A DNA stretch of 64,000 nt from a virus, in the IMG/VR virus record IMGVR_UViG_3300022848_000014, positions 1 to 64,000 of that record. One strand, written 5' to 3'. Below are positions 39,112-54,867 of this stretch, in pieces (the stretch's first letter is position 1; each line of letters begins with the position of its first letter). The position numbers and the translations under genes are program-made. The notes under the pieces are model-generated. The model ran no database searches. It had not been told where the DNA came from and saw only the letters and a program-made list of their open reading frames with translations.

Positions 39112-39196
39112 CATATTTCTCCGTAAGTACTCCGAAAGACGTTGCTCAACAGTCGCTTAATGCCATTCGAAGAGAACGGCACGAAGCTTAGTGTTA
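39112..39196 (-). repeat. 85-bp inverted repeat, partner of 54783-54867
   Basis: Reverse complement matches 54783-54867 with 2 mismatches. Confidence 0.95.
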
Positions 39197-39199
39197 GCT
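39144..39199 (-). mobile_element. attC-like site E
   Basis: Minus strand AGCTAAC-ACTAAGCTTCGTGCCGTTC TCTTC GAATGGCATTAAGCGACT-GTTGAGC, imperfect palindrome. Confidence 0.7.
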
Positions 39200-39206
39200 G
39201 CAAGTG

Positions 39207-40040
39207 CTACGTTCCAGTTTTAATTGAAAGTTCGTACATATCAGCCGTAATAATATTTTTTTCTCCCACCCTCTCTTTTGAGATTTGATACATATCAAAA
39301 TCATTTTCAATGCCAATGTAGTTTCTTTTTGTTTCAAAACAAGAAAGTCCAGTTGTATTACTTCCGCAAGTATTATCAAGAACCCAATCATTTTCATTTG
39401 AGTAGGTTTTAACAAGGTATTTAATCAACTCCAGTGGTTTTTGAGTTGGATGTAATGCTGATTTTTGTTTATCAGTAGCAAAACTCAAAACACTTTTCGG
39501 GTATCGTTCTGTACTATCATAAGTTGTAAGCCCATGTTCACCATAGTTAGTAGTCTTTTTAGAGTTTCTTTTATGCTTTGCTGTGCTTACCTTTCTTTCG
39601 TGTCCAGTAGTCTTTTGTGGGTTATACGTTGGTAATCTCTTGTAGAATACCAGTATGTCTTCGTGGCTTCTCAATGGCATTCTTTTAGCGTTTAAGTGTC
39701 CTGTTGGGGTTGTTTTTTGCCAAATTAGATTATATCTATGTAGCTTCTCATTTGAGAGCATCAACCTTGCAGAAAATTTATCCTGTCCGAAAAGAACTAT
39801 TGCCCCATTTTTAACTATTATTCTTTCGTATTGCTCCCAAAGTAAATTCAAATCAATGAGTGAATCCCATTTATTCTTAGTTACACCATAAGGTAAATCA
39901 CAACAAATTAGGTTTATGCTTTGGTCGGGTATTTGTTTCATCATCTGAAGGCAGTCTCCAAACCAAAGAATGTTTTTGGTTTTTTCAAAACCATCTTTGC
40001 CACCGCTCAAAAAAATATTATTACTACGTTCGTTTTTCAT
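39207..40040 (-). CDS. DNA N6-adenine/N4-cytosine methyltransferase (beta class)
   Basis: GDCL..M, CDLPYG, HPTQKP, VLDNTCGS.TT, YIGIE. Confidence 0.92.
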   Translation of the reverse strand: MKNERSNNIFLSGGKDGFEKTKNILWFGDCLQMMKQIPDQSINLICCDLPYGVTKNKWDSLIDLNLLWEQYERIIVKNGAIVLFGQDKFSARLMLSNEKLHRYNLIWQKTTPTGHLNAKRMPLRSHEDILVFYKRLPTYNPQKTTGHERKVSTAKHKRNSKKTTNYGEHGLTTYDSTERYPKSVLSFATDKQKSALHPTQKPLELIKYLVKTYSNENDWVLDNTCGSNTTGLSCFETKRNYIGIENDFDMYQISKERVGEKNIITADMYELSIKTGT

Positions 40041-40073
40041 ATCAAAGTTTTGTGTTTAAAATCCGCACCAGTC

Positions 40074-40168
40074 AGCTAACATGGTATATAAAAAATAGCC
40101 TATTAAAGTTCGGTGTATAATATCAATGTTTGTGGTCAGGCTACTTTTCATATACCTGTCCGTTAGCA
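40074..40168 (-). mobile_element. attC-like site D
   Basis: TGCTAAC..GGTATATGAAAAGTAGCCT...AGGCTATTTTTTATATACC.T-GTTAGCT on the minus strand. Confidence 0.75.
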
Positions 40169-40178
40169 ACAATAAAAA

Positions 40179-40355
40179 TTATTCCTCCCACCAGTAAAGC
40201 ACCTTAAAGAAGCTCTTTATCATTTCAGGAACATCCCATTCATCACCTAACCAAGTGCTTTCCCCTTCACCATTGTTACAAGAAGGTGCATTGTTTTTTA
40301 TTCTGTATTTACCAACAGAAGTTGGTTGTCTTTCGTTTGTGCTTACCCAAGCCAT
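40179..40355 (-). CDS. 58-aa cassette protein (MAWVSTNERQP..., DUF551-like start)
   Basis: Single ORF filling the space between sites C and D. Confidence 0.6.
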   Translation of the reverse strand: MAWVSTNERQPTSVGKYRIKNNAPSCNNGEGESTWLGDEWDVPEMIKSFFKVLYWWEE

Positions 40356-40367
40356 AATTTTAAAAGT

Positions 40368-40461
40368 TGCTAACAAAAGCTATAAATAAAAGCCTTGTTA
40401 AGGTTTGTGTGTGAATTGAACTTTGTGTTGAAGGCTTCAATTCATAGCCTAGTCATTACCT
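40368..40461 (-). mobile_element. attC-like site C (AAT variant)
   Basis: AGGTAAT..GCTATGAATTGAAGCCTT...AAGGCTTTTATTTATAGC..GTTAGCA on the minus strand. Confidence 0.7.
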
Positions 40462-40469
40462 GCAAGTGC

Positions 40470-41609
40470 TTAGACTTGTGCTAAACTTGAAGATTCGTGC
40501 TTATCATCCCGTAATAATATTTTTTTTCTCCCCTCTTTTGATTCTGCTAATATTAGAGCTTTGAATATTTGAAATGCAACCTGGGGTACAATTGCATTTC
40601 CGTATGCTTTTATTGATTCTTGTCGCCATTTAGGAAAGGTAATTCCGTCCAGTTGGTTGGAAATCCCATCATTTCCGCTACAAATTGGGGATTGAGTTGG
40701 CCATCTACCATCATAGTAAGTCCAACTTGCTTTCCTTTCTCCAAACGATTCAGAACGCATTTGTCCTTTGGGTTTCCCCTGTTCCTGTTGTCGCTTGCAT
40801 TCGGTGTCGGCAACATTCCTTTTTGATTCCACTTCGCTACCGTTTCTTCCAAATTCCCTTTGTTCCTGTTTGCTAATTTCTCGCTGTTTAGATTGCATCC
40901 GTTTACTTGGTTCGCTCTCGGTGTCGGTATTAATCCCTGAGATATTTGATGTGATAATGTTGTTTGAACTTTCGTTCCGTCTTTCCTGTACCAAGAGGTT
41001 TCCTTCCAAATCCAACCTTTTTCTTTTGCTCTCTCTGGCGTTATGTTCGCCATTGGATTTGCGCTCGGTGTTGATAGCAATAAACCAGACCCTATCTCTT
41101 CTATGGGGAGCGTTGACGGCAGCAGCTGGAAGTACACACGGTTGTACTTTGTACCCTTCATTTTCCAAGTCAGCTTGCACCTCGTTGAAAACCAATCCGT
41201 CATTCCAACTAATGAGACCAGAAACATTTTCTGCCACAACATATTTGGGTTTAATCTCTCGAATTGCTCTAAGCATTTCTGGCCAGAGGTGTCGGTCATC
41301 TTCTTTACCAAGTCTTTTACCTGCTGAGCTGTAAGGTTGGCAGGGGAATCCTCCTGTGAGGATGTCAATTTTTCCTCTGTGAATAGAGAAGTCTGTTTTG
41401 GTAATGTCTTCATAAGATATTGCTTTAGGCCAGTAATGTTTTAGTATTCGTTGACCAAATTCGTTCCATTCGCAATGAAATACGTTTTCCCACCCCATCC
41501 ATTCAGCAGCTAAATCAAAGCCACCAATTCCAGAGAACAGAGAACCGTGTTTTAGGCTATCGCCTAATTTGCCATCGCTCAAAAAAATATTATTACTACG
41601 TTCAGTCAT
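40470..41609 (-). CDS. DNA C5-cytosine methyltransferase, large (alpha-like) chain
   Basis: LFSGIGGF, GGFPCQ, ENV, HRRDRVW, C-terminal YGNAIVPQ (motif X); motif IX absent. Confidence 0.92.
   Translation of the reverse strand: MTERSNNIFLSDGKLGDSLKHGSLFSGIGGFDLAAEWMGWENVFHCEWNEFGQRILKHYWPKAISYEDITKTDFSIHRGKIDILTGGFPCQPYSSAGKRLGKEDDRHLWPEMLRAIREIKPKYVVAENVSGLISWNDGLVFNEVQADLENEGYKVQPCVLPAAAVNAPHRRDRVWFIAINTERKSNGEHNARESKRKRLDLEGNLLVQERRNESSNNIITSNISGINTDTESEPSKRMQSKQREISKQEQREFGRNGSEVESKRNVADTECKRQQEQGKPKGQMRSESFGERKASWTYYDGRWPTQSPICSGNDGISNQLDGITFPKWRQESIKAYGNAIVPQVAFQIFKALILAESKEGRKKILLRDDKHESSSLAQV
40610..41413 (-). CDS. Nested out-of-frame C5-MTase small (beta-like) chain carrying motif IX
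   Basis: 267 aa alternative-frame ORF with three (L/I)(S/P)TP repeats and LNPQFVAEMMGFPTNWT. Confidence 0.7.
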   Translation of the reverse strand: MKTLPKQTSLFTEEKLTSSQEDSPANLTAQQVKDLVKKMTDTSGQKCLEQFERLNPNMLWQKMFLVSLVGMTDWFSTRCKLTWKMKGTKYNRVYFQLLPSTLPIEEIGSGLLLSTPSANPMANITPERAKEKGWIWKETSWYRKDGTKVQTTLSHQISQGLIPTPRANQVNGCNLNSEKLANRNKGNLEETVAKWNQKGMLPTPNASDNRNRGNPKDKCVLNRLEKGKQVGLTMMVDGQLNPQFVAEMMGFPTNWTELPFLNGDKNQ

Positions 41610-41644
41610 TTAATTAAAGTTTGTGTTTATTAATCGCACCAGTC

Positions 41645-41700
41645 AGGTAACACGCTATAAAAGCCATTGAAAAAACGGCTCTTATAGCTATTCGTTAGGC
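41645..41700 (-). mobile_element. attC-like site B
   Basis: GCCTAAC..GCTATAAGAGCCGTT TTTTC AATGGCTTTTATAGC.T-GTTACCT on the minus strand. Confidence 0.75.
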
Positions 41701-41716
41701 ACAATTAAAACAAACT

Positions 41717-42550
41717 TTATTGCATATTAATTTCGCTCTCCGTTTCGCTTCTTTTATCTAAGTCGTTTATCCCACACATACCATTACAATCAAACAATGG
41801 TTTAGGCTCTCTACCTTTCATCATACTAATATCTTTCATTTGTGGGTAGTCTTTATGTGGTTTTAGAAATACTAATCCACCGCCTTTACTTTGGTCTTTC
41901 AACATAGTTATTGGCTTACCTTTAACATTTGTTAGTTCATGCTCCATCGCTGCCATTTTATCAAATTTATCAGGAAAGTCTCTACTCATTTTCTGCCAAT
42001 ATCCAATTCCACCTTGTACGCATCCAGTCTTAAAACAATTGTTATTTAAGAACCCTAATTGATACATATTTGGAACTTCAATACTTGCATCTTGTACAAT
42101 CTTAATACAATCCTTTTTATTCAATCCATGCATCATTAAAGGAAATAAAGGTTTTGTTTGTGGATGGTTTAAAACCATCCCTTTTGCTCTCTTATATTCG
42201 TCAAGTTCAAACCCAAAAATTTGATGTTTCCATTCATTAGTCTTTTCCCACGTTTCACGTACTTGCCTTTTCATTTCAGAACTACATACAGCACCCTTAG
42301 CATTGTTCAGTGCTTTGTATCTTCGCCAAACTGCTTGAACGCTTTCGTGCTTTGTACTACTTATAGTCTCAATCTCTATGCCATACCAATCGGCACAGTC
42401 TTTCATAAATCGGTAAGTATCATCGTCTTCATTATGTGTATCAATAAAAATAATTCTTACATTTTCTTTACCATACAAATCAATTCCAATTTTACAAGCT
42501 ACCGCACTTGTAATTCCACCACTCCACCAGCCAATTATCTTATATTTCAT
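41717..42550 (-). CDS. PAPS-reductase-like PP-loop protein
   Basis: WWSGGITSAVAC PP-loop; C..E.KR..R, GF...E..R, Y.LGF.NNNC...GCV.GG.GYW. Confidence 0.75.
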   Translation of the reverse strand: MKYKIIGWWSGGITSAVACKIGIDLYGKENVRIIFIDTHNEDDDTYRFMKDCADWYGIEIETISSTKHESVQAVWRRYKALNNAKGAVCSSEMKRQVRETWEKTNEWKHQIFGFELDEYKRAKGMVLNHPQTKPLFPLMMHGLNKKDCIKIVQDASIEVPNMYQLGFLNNNCFKTGCVQGGIGYWQKMSRDFPDKFDKMAAMEHELTNVKGKPITMLKDQSKGGGLVFLKPHKDYPQMKDISMMKGREPKPLFDCNGMCGINDLDKRSETESEINMQ

Positions 42551-42951
42551 ATTGCAAATGATTTTAAATATTCCACACCATCTTCTAATGTGTCAAAAAC
42601 AATATCAGAAACCTGTGTTACAAAGGATAAGTAATTATCTTTTATTGTTTCGTGATTTGGTTCAAGTACAGTTATAACCGTTTTACCCAATCCTTTAGCA
42701 TAACCAGCCTCACAACATAAACCAATACAGCTCGTGTTTGTTTTTTCAATATAAACAAATAGTATATCACTTTGCTTTATAAAATGCAAATCCCATTTTC
42801 CGTACTCATTCACATTCATAATAACCCTTTCGTTATTCTTAAACTCTTTATCTTTTGGGTTAATCCATTCAATATTATCAGAACATTCTTTTACTTTATT
42901 AGCCCAATCGCTCTTAAAACCACCAGCTAAATATGTTTTTTGTTTTATCAT
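42547..42951 (-). CDS. Nucleoside 2-deoxyribosyltransferase-like protein
   Basis: YLAGG, NP, WDL..I..SD, G...E.GYA..LGK.V. Confidence 0.75.
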   Translation of the reverse strand: MIKQKTYLAGGFKSDWANKVKECSDNIEWINPKDKEFKNNERVIMNVNEYGKWDLHFIKQSDILFVYIEKTNTSCIGLCCEAGYAKGLGKTVITVLEPNHETIKDNYLSFVTQVSDIVFDTLEDGVEYLKSFAI

Positions 42952-42987
42952 TGTATATATTTTTCATATTTTATAATTAATAACTGT

Positions 42988-43118
42988 GCCTAACACGGTA
43001 TAAAAATAATAGCGGTTTTAGGTCTTTATTTAAGGTTAGTAATATTTATTTAATTCTGTTCTTAATCGTTTGGTTCGTGCGTTTCAATCCGCTACTATTC
43101 TTATACAACACGTTACCA
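42988..43118 (-). mobile_element. attC-like site A
   Basis: TGGTAAC..GTATAAGAATAGTAGCGG...CCGCTATTATTTTTATAC..GTTAGGC on the minus strand. Confidence 0.75.
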
Positions 43119-53015: not shown

Positions 53016-53240
53016 ATGAAAAACAATAAAATTATAAGCAGTTTTAAATATTGGGCAATCACTAGAAAATGGTTGTGGCAAAGAGTCGTTTTTGATAATG
53101 GTGTTGTTGGCAGAAACTATCACAGATATGACCATATCTTGTATTCTTATTGTCAAGGAATGGGTGATAATGGAGAGTATGGAGGTATTAATACCGTAAT
53201 AAAATTACAAGTGGAATCATCTATGCGTAATTGTGCCTAA
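53016..53240 (+). CDS. Hypothetical cassette-type protein; stop codon lies inside site F
   Basis: Ends TGT GCC TAA(C). Confidence 0.6.
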   Translation: MKNNKIISSFKYWAITRKWLWQRVVFDNGVVGRNYHRYDHILYSYCQGMGDNGEYGGINTVIKLQVESSMRNCA

Positions 53241-53297
53241 CGGTTTGTATATGAAATCGGCTGACGATAGGAAGCTGTTTTATATACCGTGTTAGCC
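53235..53297 (+). mobile_element. attC-like site F
   Basis: GCCTAAC-GGTTTGTATATGAAATCGGCT...AGCTGTTTTATATACCGT-GTTAGCC. Confidence 0.75.
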
Positions 53298-53335
53298 ATC
53301 TGGCTGTGGTAAATTAAGAACTAAAATTAAATAGA

Positions 53336-53980
53336 ATGAAAATATTAATAGCTTGTGAGGAGAGCCAAGAAGTTTGTAAGGCTTTCCGAGAAATAGGATT
53401 TGAGGCTTATAGTTGCGATATGCAAGAATGTAGTGGTGGTAAACCTGAATGGCATATTGTAGGTGATGCAGTTGTAGAAGCGTATAGTGGTAAATATGAC
53501 CTTATGATAGCGCACCCACCTTGCACTTATATTAGTAGAGCTGGTGCAAGATGGATGTACCCAACAGCAGGAAATTTAAGCCAAGAAAGATTTAATAAAG
53601 CAATGGAAGCGAAGGATTTGTTTATGAAATTATTGAACGCTCCTATACCTTATATTGCTGTTGAGAACCCAACATTGTTAAAAGTAGTTGGATTGCCTAA
53701 ACAAAGCCAAGCGGTGCAACCTTATGAATACGGACACCCTTATAGTAAAAGAACTCTGCTGTGGATTAAAAATTTACCACTATTAAGCCCAACCAAAATA
53801 GTAAGCGAATATAAGCCGTACTTACCAAGTAATACAGGGGGCAAAAAACGAGGGCAGAAATATCAATTTAAGAACATAAGCCAAAAGGAAAGCAGTAAAA
53901 CTTTTAGCGGAATTGCAAAAGCTATGGCTGAACAATGGGGAAACTTCATTAAAAGCGATAATGTAGCAGCTTGTGGCTAA
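53336..53980 (+). CDS. Phage DNA cytosine methyltransferase-like protein
   Basis: ILIACEES, SCD, IAHPPCT, ENP, K.TLLW...LP, SKTF.GIA.AMAEQWG; stop inside site G. Confidence 0.8.
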   Translation: MKILIACEESQEVCKAFREIGFEAYSCDMQECSGGKPEWHIVGDAVVEAYSGKYDLMIAHPPCTYISRAGARWMYPTAGNLSQERFNKAMEAKDLFMKLLNAPIPYIAVENPTLLKVVGLPKQSQAVQPYEYGHPYSKRTLLWIKNLPLLSPTKIVSEYKPYLPSNTGGKKRGQKYQFKNISQKESSKTFSGIAKAMAEQWGNFIKSDNVAACG

Positions 53981-54042
53981 CGTGTTGTATATGATTAAGC
54001 GATAGCGACCCTTTTTAGGGTTAATTATATACGGTGTTACCT
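53975..54042 (+). mobile_element. attC-like site G
   Basis: GGCTAAC-GTGTTGTATATGATTAA...TTAATTATATACGGT-GTTACCT. Confidence 0.75.
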
Positions 54043-54068
54043 GCAGTACGGATTATTAAAAACGAAAT

Positions 54069-54773
54069 ATGAAAAGAAACAAAATATATTTAGGGGATTG
54101 TTTAGAGTTGATGCCTAAACACGTAGAAGATAAAAGCGTTGATATGATTTTTTGCGATTTACCTTATGGAACAACACAAAACAAATGGGATAGCGTTATA
54201 CCTTTTGAGCCACTTTGGGAACAATATAAGAGAGTTATAAAAGATAATGGAGCTATTGTGTTATTTGGCTCACAACCTTTTACAAGTGCTTTAATTATGA
54301 GTGAACCTAAAATGTTTAAATACTCTTGGTATTGGTTAAAAAATAGAGCTACTGGAGTTTTAAACTCTAAAAAACAACCGTTAAGAAATATTGAAGAAAT
54401 TTGTGTTTTTAATATAAAGAAATATAACCCACAAGGATTGATTGAGGTGAACCAACCAAGTAGAAACAGCAAGAAAGATTACGATAACTATGGGAAAGGA
54501 ACTAGTAAACAATACACTCAAAAATACACAAACTACCCAAAGCAATTGATTGAGTTTAATAGCGTGCAAAGAACAACGCACCCAACAGAAAAGCCATTAG
54601 ATTTAATTGAATATATGATTAAGACTTACACAAATGAAGGTGATTTGATACTTGATAATACTTGTGGAAGTGGAACAACTGGAAGAGGAGCGAAGAACTT
54701 AAACAGAGATTATATTATGATGGAGCAAGAAGAGAAGTATTATGACATTGCTTGTAAAAGACTACTAACTTAG
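54069..54773 (+). CDS. DNA N6-adenine/N4-cytosine methyltransferase (beta class), paralogue of 39207-40040
   Basis: GDCLELM, CDLPYG, HPTEKP, ILDNTCGSGTT. Confidence 0.92.
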   Translation: MKRNKIYLGDCLELMPKHVEDKSVDMIFCDLPYGTTQNKWDSVIPFEPLWEQYKRVIKDNGAIVLFGSQPFTSALIMSEPKMFKYSWYWLKNRATGVLNSKKQPLRNIEEICVFNIKKYNPQGLIEVNQPSRNSKKDYDNYGKGTSKQYTQKYTNYPKQLIEFNSVQRTTHPTEKPLDLIEYMIKTYTNEGDLILDNTCGSGTTGRGAKNLNRDYIMMEQEEKYYDIACKRLLT

Positions 54774-54779
54774 TATTGC

Positions 54780-54835
54780 AGGTAACACTAAGCTTCGTGC
54801 CGTTCTCTTCGAATGGCATTAAGCGACTGTTTAGC
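54780..54835 (+). mobile_element. attC-like site H (same body as site E)
   Basis: AGGTAAC-ACTAAGCTTCGTGCCGTTC...GAATGGCATTAAGCGACT-GTTTAGC. Confidence 0.7.
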
Positions 54836-54867
54836 ACCGTCTTTCGGAGTACTTACGGAGAAATATG
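54783..54867 (+). repeat. 85-bp inverted repeat, partner of 39112-39196
   Basis: 83/85 identity to the reverse complement. Confidence 0.95.

Follow-up and report, generated by a model that had tools for sequence, protein, structure and literature searches.

How do two unrelated genes come to begin and end with almost the same DNA? The question is raised by a stretch of 64,000 nucleotides (hereafter, the window), which comprises positions 1-64,000 of the 73.7-kb IMG/VR virus record IMGVR_UViG_3300022848_000014, a phage genome with direct terminal repeats. Two DNA methyltransferase genes of the window, one of the N6/N4 and one of the C5 kind, are each enclosed in what is here termed the frame: a 5' arm of 84-85 nt and a 3' arm of 87-89 nt that end in an outer inverted repeat and hold, further inside, one copy each of a 16-mer (GTAATAATATTTTTTT) in opposite orientations. 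From the comparison of this frame with its relatives in other contigs, we incline to the view that it is the conserved casing of mobile gene cassettes that form one family in phages and are specialised for DNA modification.

The initial annotation of the window had described a shell of about 80 bp at the 5' end and about 75 bp at the 3' end shared by two cassettes with non-homologous cores, with 16-bp inverted repeats around each core and start and stop codons supplied by the shell. All the coordinates and strings given there proved correct on re-examination. The 5' arms of the two cassettes are 84% identical over 96 nt and the 3' arms can be aligned over about 88 nt; the ATG lies in the 5' arm and the stop codon in the 3' arm of both cassettes, and perfect repeats bracket each core at the four expected positions (Table 1). 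The cores belong to different families, PF01555 (residues 42-255 of the 277-residue N6/N4 protein) and PF00145 (residues 21-352 of the 379-residue C5 protein), and both domains lie wholly between the arms, which encode roughly 15-20 N-terminal residues (the leader) and 20-25 C-terminal residues (the tail) outside them. Two corrections were needed: both genes are read from the minus strand and, since the arms end in the outer inverted repeat, the cassettes run from 39193 to 40080 and from 40455 to 41651.

The four exact copies of the 16-mer, two per orientation, are the only ones in the 64 kb even when two mismatches are allowed, with 0.18 copies expected by chance and four copies reached in none of 100 shuffles. 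The outer repeats, of 15-17 nt, differ between the cassettes (GTTAGCTG.../...CAGCTAAC in the N6/N4 and GTTACCTG.../...CAGGTAAT in the C5 cassette), the N6/N4 pair being formed by GTTAGCTGACTGGTGCG with GCACTTGCAGCTAAC. Direct repeats are also found in each arm, namely a G-rich motif, GAGCGnGGG, between each 16-mer and the cargo, and a stretch of 26-30 nt ending in GAACGTAG that precedes the 5' 16-mer and recurs before the 3' outer repeat. The additional claim that the 3' shell is read in different frames in the two genes holds across the 16-mer, which yields EKNIIT in one tail and KKILLR in the other, but not beyond it, as one extra A and a compensating 1-nt indel bring both tails back to a common frame. 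A structure predicted for the framed N6/N4 enzyme reached a mean predicted local distance difference test (pLDDT) score of 34.5 with a 14-row alignment, unusable for judging a contact between leader and tail.

Frame copies, their cargo and matched-end lineages

Public sequence collections were searched with an exact 23-mer and then a 21-mer of the 5' arm, and with an 18-mer of the 3' arm. The exact 21-mer was present in 104 metagenome, 22 viral and 7 genome stretches and, once chance matches had been set aside (about 11 of the 21-mer and 9 of the 18-mer), about 90 distinct frame copies were obtained, all starting with M-x(3-4)-SNNIFLS-(D/E/G)-G-K. In agreement with the early expectation that the same shell should recur with many different cargos, at least eight unrelated kinds are enclosed. 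C5 methyltransferases of several lineages account for 48 copies, N6/N4 methyltransferases of at least three lineages for 18 and phrog_757 methyltransferases for 7, and the other cargos comprise phrog_498 and phrog_954 methyltransferases, an HNH/NUMOD4 endonuclease, a phrog_21498 protein and a Tet_JBP and FkbM operon. In this last case (contig L006, 1751-3734, plus strand), one frame holds a 75-residue open reading frame (ORF), a Tet/JBP dioxygenase and an FkbM methyltransferase; its leader ORF ends after 29 residues and its 3' arm is non-coding. The 3' 16-mer is present in 58 of the 74 informative copies (46 exact, 11 with one change and 1 with two changes), and in 55 of these 58 the leader ORF continues through the cargo into the 3' arm, with the stop codon placed just before the outer repeat.

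What other contigs share with the window is the cassette only. Comparison of the flanks (69 upstream and 53 downstream) yielded few similar pairs, mostly duplicate records. Since only the cassette is shared and its flanks are almost never alike, it can be concluded that the cassette moves as a unit between unrelated neighbourhoods. Two contigs with the same downstream neighbour (L027 and L053) are 94% identical in the inner 5' arm and differ in their cores and outer ends. Logan contigs from four further salt-lake runs break at the cassette ends (39193/39206, 40161 and 40457), and two contig joints (39264 to 39996 and 39913 to 41568) coincide with the inner edges of the arms. The summed depth of the arm-matching contigs is several-fold that of the cores, which is what many arm-sharing cassettes would give, although this is weak evidence because the depths of all matching contigs were added.

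The frames fall into three related lineages: lineage I (5' outer end GTTAGCTG, leader M(K/E)NE(R/H), 3' outer end CAGCTAAC), lineage II (GTTACCTG, MT(E/K)x and CAGGTAA) and lineage III (GTTGTACA, MN(D/E)x and TGTACAAC). The N6/N4 cassette of the window belongs to lineage I and its C5 cassette to lineage II, so that the single shell originally proposed corresponds to related arms drawn from two of the three lineages and not to one identical shell. The type of the 5' outer end predicts the complementary 3' type in 14 of 14, 10 of 12 and 8 of 9 frames of the respective types (32 of 35 in total), and no cross-type pair of outer ends occurs among the 35 typed frames. Outer type is also linked to leader codons 2-5, and each lineage carries three to five kinds of core.

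This arrangement is organised around the 16-mer. The outer ends are lineage-specific terminal inverted repeats that start with GTT and end with AAC; between them and the inner segments lie an untranslated stretch and the start codon on the 5' side, and tail codons and the stop on the 3' side. The inner segments are universal in all lineages and consist of TAG, the 16-mer, GAGCGnnGGCAAA and often a linker of about 27 nt on the 5' side, and of GAGCGnGGGGAAG, the reversed 16-mer and CGG on the 3' side; the leader, and usually also the tail, is continuous with the reading frame of the enclosed cargo core. Because the 16-mer marks the border between lineage-specific sequence outside and universal sequence inside, it is fair to speak of a module nested within a cassette. 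To this extent the cassette within a cassette proposed in the initial annotation is upheld, while a dedicated capture step is not shown by the evidence. The same outer ends are also found without the 16-mer, in a lineage I frame with PP-loop cargo (L150) and in a second array of the window (53230-54783).

On the 5' side, the commonest junctions between frame and cargo follow GGCAAA, about 13 nt inward of the 16-mer; on the 3' side they fall at GGGAG or GGGAAG, 0-16 nt inward of the 16-mer. The sharp junctions originally predicted at TGGCAAA and GGGAG are thus the most frequent ones, but a second discrete junction follows the 27-nt linker and a few shorter ones exist. After GGCAAA the linker is read as MADDRKTNN, IADAGSK, MAEERSQG or, through a compensated frameshift, LLTQEAK, and it is also found untranslated in the 5' leaders of other cassettes. 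The cargo is in frame with the leader ATG in 36 of 39 distinct junction strings, and therefore the leader is normally translated.

The combination of leaders, cores and tails reveals where the breakpoints lie. All four combinations of leader (TKL or NDS) with core (C5A or C5B') have been found, and likewise all four combinations of tail (type A or B) with the same cores, which places the breakpoints within a few tens of bases, from leader codon 5 to the cargo, and in the matching 3' stretch. The four linker-bearing junction classes each occur on two lineages (4/4), whereas the four large classes fused directly after GGCAAA, with 8-10 members each, are all confined to one (4/4). Moreover, the codon 12 variants GAG and GGT, situated 6-8 nt inside the 16-mer, are restricted to lineage I, and each is associated with at least three different cores. 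Codon 12 therefore stays with the frame, and the crossovers in these cases lay inside of that codon, not at the 16-mer.

Three further observations concern individual cargos. In L029 (1735-2832, plus strand), and also in L091, the cargo of the frame is the HNH/NUMOD4 homing-type endonuclease, with the leader, the linker and the 3' 16-mer all present; such a nuclease could promote the exchange of cargo if it cut frames from which it is absent. A framed C5 methyltransferase of 581 residues (L003, 9319-11064, plus strand) differs from a 360-residue relative in L008 by a low-complexity insert of about 220 residues, which resembles the low-complexity insert of the window C5 gene. Inside that window gene, a 267-residue ORF in another frame (40610-41413, minus strand) matches the phrog_1008 'DNA methyltransferase' family (E 8e-26) and has no Pfam match; the main C5 frame stays open across it through the low-complexity insert, and the ORF may represent dual coding or a nested gene.

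Exchange of cores and competing explanations

The restriction of lineage changes to linker-bearing cores, together with the fixed codon 12, argues for homology-dependent exchange and not for cutting at the 16-mer. Because of this linker-dependent reassortment and of the absence of recombinases described below, recombination in the short conserved arms is rated the most likely mechanism of core movement, a judgement drawn from sequence comparison and held with moderate confidence. During co-infection, a core would pass between resident frames through two crossovers, one in each universal inner segment, the arms serving as natural homology arms that also bring a ready-made start and stop, and the 16-mer would form the conserved centre of the region in which crossovers occur. 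With both crossovers inside the inner segments of a resident frame, the constant matching of the outer ends would also be explained. The entry of a new core, by illegitimate joining close to or at the start codon of the cargo itself, would be a rare event followed by spread. The likely benefit would be a quick swap of methylation specificities leading to escape from host restriction.

Several points weigh against this account. The evidence is all comparative, with no exchange event seen directly, and stretches of 29-56 nt of identity are short for RecA-type recombination. The window phage carries YqaJ/RecE-like and weakly RecT-like genes, but the YqaJ match is absent from five other frame-bearing records and no common recombination enzyme was identified. 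Plain homologous recombination leaves unexplained the inverted arrangement of the 16-mers of the inner segments, the G-rich direct motifs beside the cargo and the joining of at least eight unrelated genes at nearly the same two positions, near their own start codons. The contrast between linker and lineage relies on eight classes with related members. Finally, the queries contained the exact 16-mer, so that the set cannot rank its conservation against that of its surroundings and decayed frames are perhaps under-sampled. The 3' arm is decayed or absent in 16 of the 74 informative copies.

What the 16-mer does is a related matter. It appears to be conserved as DNA and not as protein, because it is read in two frames in the tails, is untranslated in L006 and survives as a relic in untranslated DNA of Polaribacter phage P12002L. 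In a single-stranded cassette, the 16-mer and the outer repeat would zip into a panhandle, and when whole cassettes were folded as single strands 16 of 16 inner pairs (pair probability 0.91-0.98) and 14-16 outer pairs were predicted. In such a model the panhandle would bring together the two boundary sites of the cassette. It is conceivable, if unlikely, that the nested repeats are parts of a phage-borne, integrase-independent cassette system in which the panhandle presents both sites and an enzyme excises, circularises or reloads the cargo; if true, this would offer a natural route from ordinary genes to mobile cassettes and would bear on the origin of integron cassettes. The decay of the 3' copy in a fifth of the copies indicates that pairing is not essential.

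No more probable is a role of the 16-mers in expression, either by pairing the ends of the transcript or by contributing the -10-like part to each of a sense and an antisense promoter-like element, which would converge, set methyltransferase dosage and leave swapping as a by-product. The predicted pairing of the two copies in the full-length strand fits the first version. In the 5' arm, the overlap of a sigma-70-like TTGATA-17 nt-AATAAT with the start codon and the 16-mer suggests the second, as does a mirrored TTGAAR-19/20 nt-AATAAT on the antisense strand of the 3' arm; the relics of frame and linker in untranslated leaders of P12002L, and the linker in the 5' leaders of other cassettes, agree with a role in expression as well. 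Nevertheless, promoter-like matches are not enriched (9 found versus 15.7 expected in shuffles, in a scan that does not cover the promoter type of the likely hosts), and Bacteroidota promoters follow a different consensus from the sigma-70-like one. The 16-mer is, furthermore, normally translated, as shown by the in-frame leaders, and its 3' copy is dispensable in the 16 copies mentioned above. Either the panhandle fold or a promoter-like reading may be the selected function of the 16-mer.

Dedicated second-level capture, in which a site-specific enzyme would recognise the two inverted 16-mers and load or exchange coding fragments between them, is quite improbable. It would account for a 16-mer that is identical on both sides in the three lineages next to lineage-specific leader codons, for the fixed short distances of the commonest junctions, for the GAGCGnGGG motifs between each 16-mer and the cargo, and for the variety of cargos joined there. 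The enzyme, though, is missing where it was searched for: the complete 73.7-kb window phage has no tyrosine (PF00589) or serine recombinase, tyrosine recombinases are absent from four of five other frame-bearing records, two of them rated complete, and no integron integrase (TIGR02249) scored above the cut-off in five genomes or metagenome bins with 21-mer matches, of which only about two are true frames. The empty, ready-made shell that loading would imply was not found either, with no pair of 16-mers separated by 0-30 or 31-61 nt in IMG/VR and no outer repeats less than 400 nt apart among 150 fetched loci. To this must be added that reassortment needs the extra homology of the linker while codon 12, inside the 16-mer, remains with the frame, that junctions fall into at least three classes and that the 3' 16-mer is decayed in many copies; site-specific loading at the repeat is not supported by these results. 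An integron-type G/TT junction at the inner boundaries was considered separately and rejected, as there is no consistent GTT or AAC at those positions.

The inner repeats might, with still lower probability, be the relic of a transposon-like or hairpin insertion into an ancestral cassette, with target duplication, of which later core replacement has left only the ends; the element inserted would have ended in 16-bp terminal inverted repeats, or else the loop of an attachment-site-like (attC-like) hairpin would have taken up the insertion. This idea finds some backing in the presence of direct repeats besides the inverted ones, notably the 26-30 nt stretch, in a direct copy of the linker before the 3' motif in L003 and L008, and in the identity of the linker translated in many framed leaders with the loop of an attC-like hairpin at 53259-53273 of the window. 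The repeats nonetheless do not follow the order that a simple duplication of target sequence outside terminal repeats would leave, a second, independent site of insertion is not known, and searches that covered two recombinase families turned up no transposase.

It is highly improbable that the leader (SNNIFLSxGK) and the tail are functional peptides involved, for example, in targeting, assembly or turnover. The in-frame leaders, and tails that stay open to the stop just before the outer repeat, are what such tags would require, but two reading frames are used across the tail 16-mer, the 3' end of L006 is non-coding, the P12002L relic is in untranslated DNA, leader residues 2-5 vary freely and the tail is lost in many copies. 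Lastly, an on/off switch by inversion of the DNA between the 16-mers, which the perfect inverted repeats on both sides of each core might bring to mind, is barely credible in view of a core reversed in none of the 58 complete copies, of no strand-changing joint in the assembled Logan contigs of the four runs (where rare forms are invisible) and of no invertase gene in the window phage.

Hairpin sites, second array and gene neighbourhood

Five imperfect palindromic sites that have AAC and GTT as their opposite ends are situated between ORFs, with the layout of an integron site (R box, unpaired spacer, L stem and variable loop). Two of them fold best (Table 1), and the other three have z-scores from -1.95 to +0.31. 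The site next to the N6/N4 cassette, folded as 40074-40170, pairs GCTAAC with GTTAGC; it accompanies the N6/N4 cassette in other contigs, and its homologues in L004, L005, L008 and L009 carry compensatory changes. The site upstream of the C5 cassette, folded as 41645-41722, separates this cassette from a two-gene cassette that ends in ...GCCTAAC. When the sites are compared with the R'' (RYYYAAC) and R' (GTTRRRY) boxes, only GTTA/TAAC (or GTTG/CAAC) is constant, and several boxes miss one to three degenerate positions, as in GTTACCT and AGGTAAT. Unframed cassettes of the window likewise have a start complementary to their own end.

The first array is closed by a sequence that we call the anchor, an inverted copy of which closes the second. 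The two copies are about 93% identical overall and have only two mismatches from AAC to GAAATATG, and the genes of both arrays are read towards the anchor. The small cassette with a 65-residue ORF forms, together with its adjoining hairpin (40161-40457), an assembly node of its own in the Logan contigs of the four runs and has the top contig depth in three of the four; the ORF has no Pfam or PHROG match.

Both framed methyltransferase cassettes are embedded in a minus-strand DNA-metabolism block, with the order deoxyribosyltransferase-like and PAPS-reductase-like pair, C5 methyltransferase, 65-residue ORF, N6/N4 methyltransferase, helicase/primase-like, RecE/YqaJ-like and weakly RecT-like. The window phage is present in salt-lake metagenomes, and a locus search with the neighbouring 328-residue protein found no close relatives. 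The only pointers to a host group are its likeness to phages of Flavobacteriia and the frame relic in Polaribacter phage P12002L, most of the seven genome matches being chance matches or tiny binned contigs; frame-bearing phages probably infect Flavobacteriia.

Table 1. Positions in the window of the two framed cassettes and of the surrounding hairpins, cassettes and anchors
Feature	Coordinates	Strand	Details
N6/N4 methyltransferase cassette	39193-40080	-	
N6/N4 cassette 3' arm, lineage I	39193-39281	-	G-rich motif, 16-mer, tail codons ...KTGT, stop, outer repeat ending CAGCTAAC
16-mer, N6/N4 cassette 3' copy	39247-39262	+	strand of match
N6/N4 core (PF01555)	39282-39995	-	whole gene 39207-40040
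N6/N4 cassette 5' arm	39996-40080	-	outer repeat GTTAGCTGACTGGTGCG (40080 down to 40064), untranslated stretch, ATG 40040; leader MKNERSNNIFLSGGK holds 16-mer, then motif GAGCGGTGGCAAA
16-mer, N6/N4 cassette 5' copy	40009-40024	-	strand of match
C5 methyltransferase cassette	40455-41651	-	
C5 cassette 3' arm, lineage II	40455-40541	-	G-rich motif, one extra A, 16-mer, tail ...SSLAQV, stop, outer repeat CAGGTAAT
16-mer, C5 cassette 3' copy	40511-40526	+	strand of match
C5 core (PF00145)	40542-41567	-	whole gene 40470-41609
C5 cassette 5' arm	41568-41651	-	outer repeat GTTACCTGACTGGTGCG, untranslated stretch, ATG 41609; leader MTERSNNIFLSDGK holds 16-mer, then motif GAGCGATGGCAAA
16-mer, C5 cassette 5' copy	41581-41596	-	strand of match
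Anchor with hairpin, closes first array	39112-39195	-	84 nt, folds as hairpin
attC-like hairpin site	40081-40161	-	...TAAC, 19-bp stem, loop, GTTAGC; fold z-score -3.9
Small cassette, 65-residue ORF (40179-40376)	40162-40374	-	own 21-nt terminal inverted repeat, without inner 16-mer
Hairpin site between C5 and small cassette	40375-40454	-	
Hairpin site upstream of C5 cassette	41652-41693	-	15-bp stem, fold z-score -3.15
Two-gene cassette, deoxyribosyltransferase-like and PAPS-reductase/PP-loop-like	41694-42994	-	own 14-nt terminal inverted repeat
Second array: phrog_757 methyltransferase cassette and N6/N4 cassette	53230-54783	+	matched outer repeats, without inner 16-mer
Anchor, inverted copy, closes second array	54784-54867		

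Relation to known cassette systems

Clusters of attC sites without an integrase (CALINs) have been described in virulent phages, among them one with methyltransferase genes in Polaribacter phage P12002L (Qi et al. 2023, PMC9892861). In that phage attC2 was recombined by IntI1, and attC1 was the one tested site that was not (PMC9892861). The window resembles a CALIN in that imperfect palindromes with ...AAC and GTT... at their limits lie between its genes, the start of a cassette is complementary to its own end (as in the 32 typed frames mentioned above), the cargo consists mostly of DNA methyltransferases and the phage has no integrase. In addition, the P12002L attC1 hairpin is of the same type as the window sites, and the frame itself survives in decayed form in P12002L gp38. 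A single site type on unrelated genes is the pattern of chromosomal integrons, the Vibrio repeats being an example. Unlike attC, however, the conserved sequence of the frame enters the coding region at both ends, gives the start and stop codons and holds an inner 16-bp inverted repeat, none of which has been described for attC, and its complementary ends span 15-21 nt and not 7. In contrast to an integron cassette, moreover, the hairpin conserved with the N6/N4 and C5B cassettes is 5' of the gene, and hairpins on the 3' side vary from copy to copy.

Functionally, the nearest counterparts of the frame are the promoter-early stem-loop (PeSL) cassettes of T4-type phages, in which short conserved motifs flank non-essential genes of variable regions and give expression signals (Arbiol et al. 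2010, PMC2839356; Comeau et al. 2014, PMC4122927). These motifs are recombination substrates, and the genes that they enclose are shuffled, replaced and circularised (PMC2839356, PMC4122927). Similarly, the four-combination tests, the linker-dependent spread and the contig joints at the arm edges suggest that recombination between frame motifs replaces the enclosed genes. Stem-loops are present between the window cassettes, and promoter-like matches are not above chance, the host promoter type being outside the scan. PeSLs are intergenic promoter-terminator units that are not fused to an ORF and have no inverted pair of 16-mers, whereas the leader and tail of the frame lie inside the ORF (36 of 39 junction types; 55 of 58 copies). 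The two systems also belong to different phage and host groups, and the frame comes in three matched-end lineages with one functional class of cargo.

Other systems share single features with the frame. At the IPI locus of T-even phages, a conserved N-terminal capsid-targeting leader on unrelated internal-protein genes allows their replacement by recombination; that leader functions at the protein level and has no matching 3' arm, whereas the frame is conserved at the nucleotide level and on both sides. Invertible switches and shufflons also have perfect inverted repeats that bracket a coding segment, but here there is no recombinase, and no inverted state was detected in copies or contigs. 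As for transposons and miniature inverted-repeat transposable elements (MITEs), inverted repeats are present, but the direct repeats are in the wrong order for a simple target-site duplication.

Phage methyltransferases decide which restriction systems a phage can escape, and a standard frame, open to any such gene in whichever phage has the frame, would explain a fast reshuffling of the anti-restriction repertoire in these phages. The abundance of the frame in salt-lake and marine metagenomes and its relic in a cultured Polaribacter phage make both the making and the integrase-free movement of cassettes testable at the bench. The frame may also serve as a natural model for short-homology cassette exchange. 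A literature search found no paper describing it. With respect to both precedents, CALINs and PeSLs, the frame differs in reaching into the ORF at both ends, in its nested pair of 16-mers, in its three matched-end lineages and in its DNA-modification cargo. It thereby extends the picture of attC-like clusters to cassettes whose ends reach into the gene, supply its start and stop and come in matched-end lineages.

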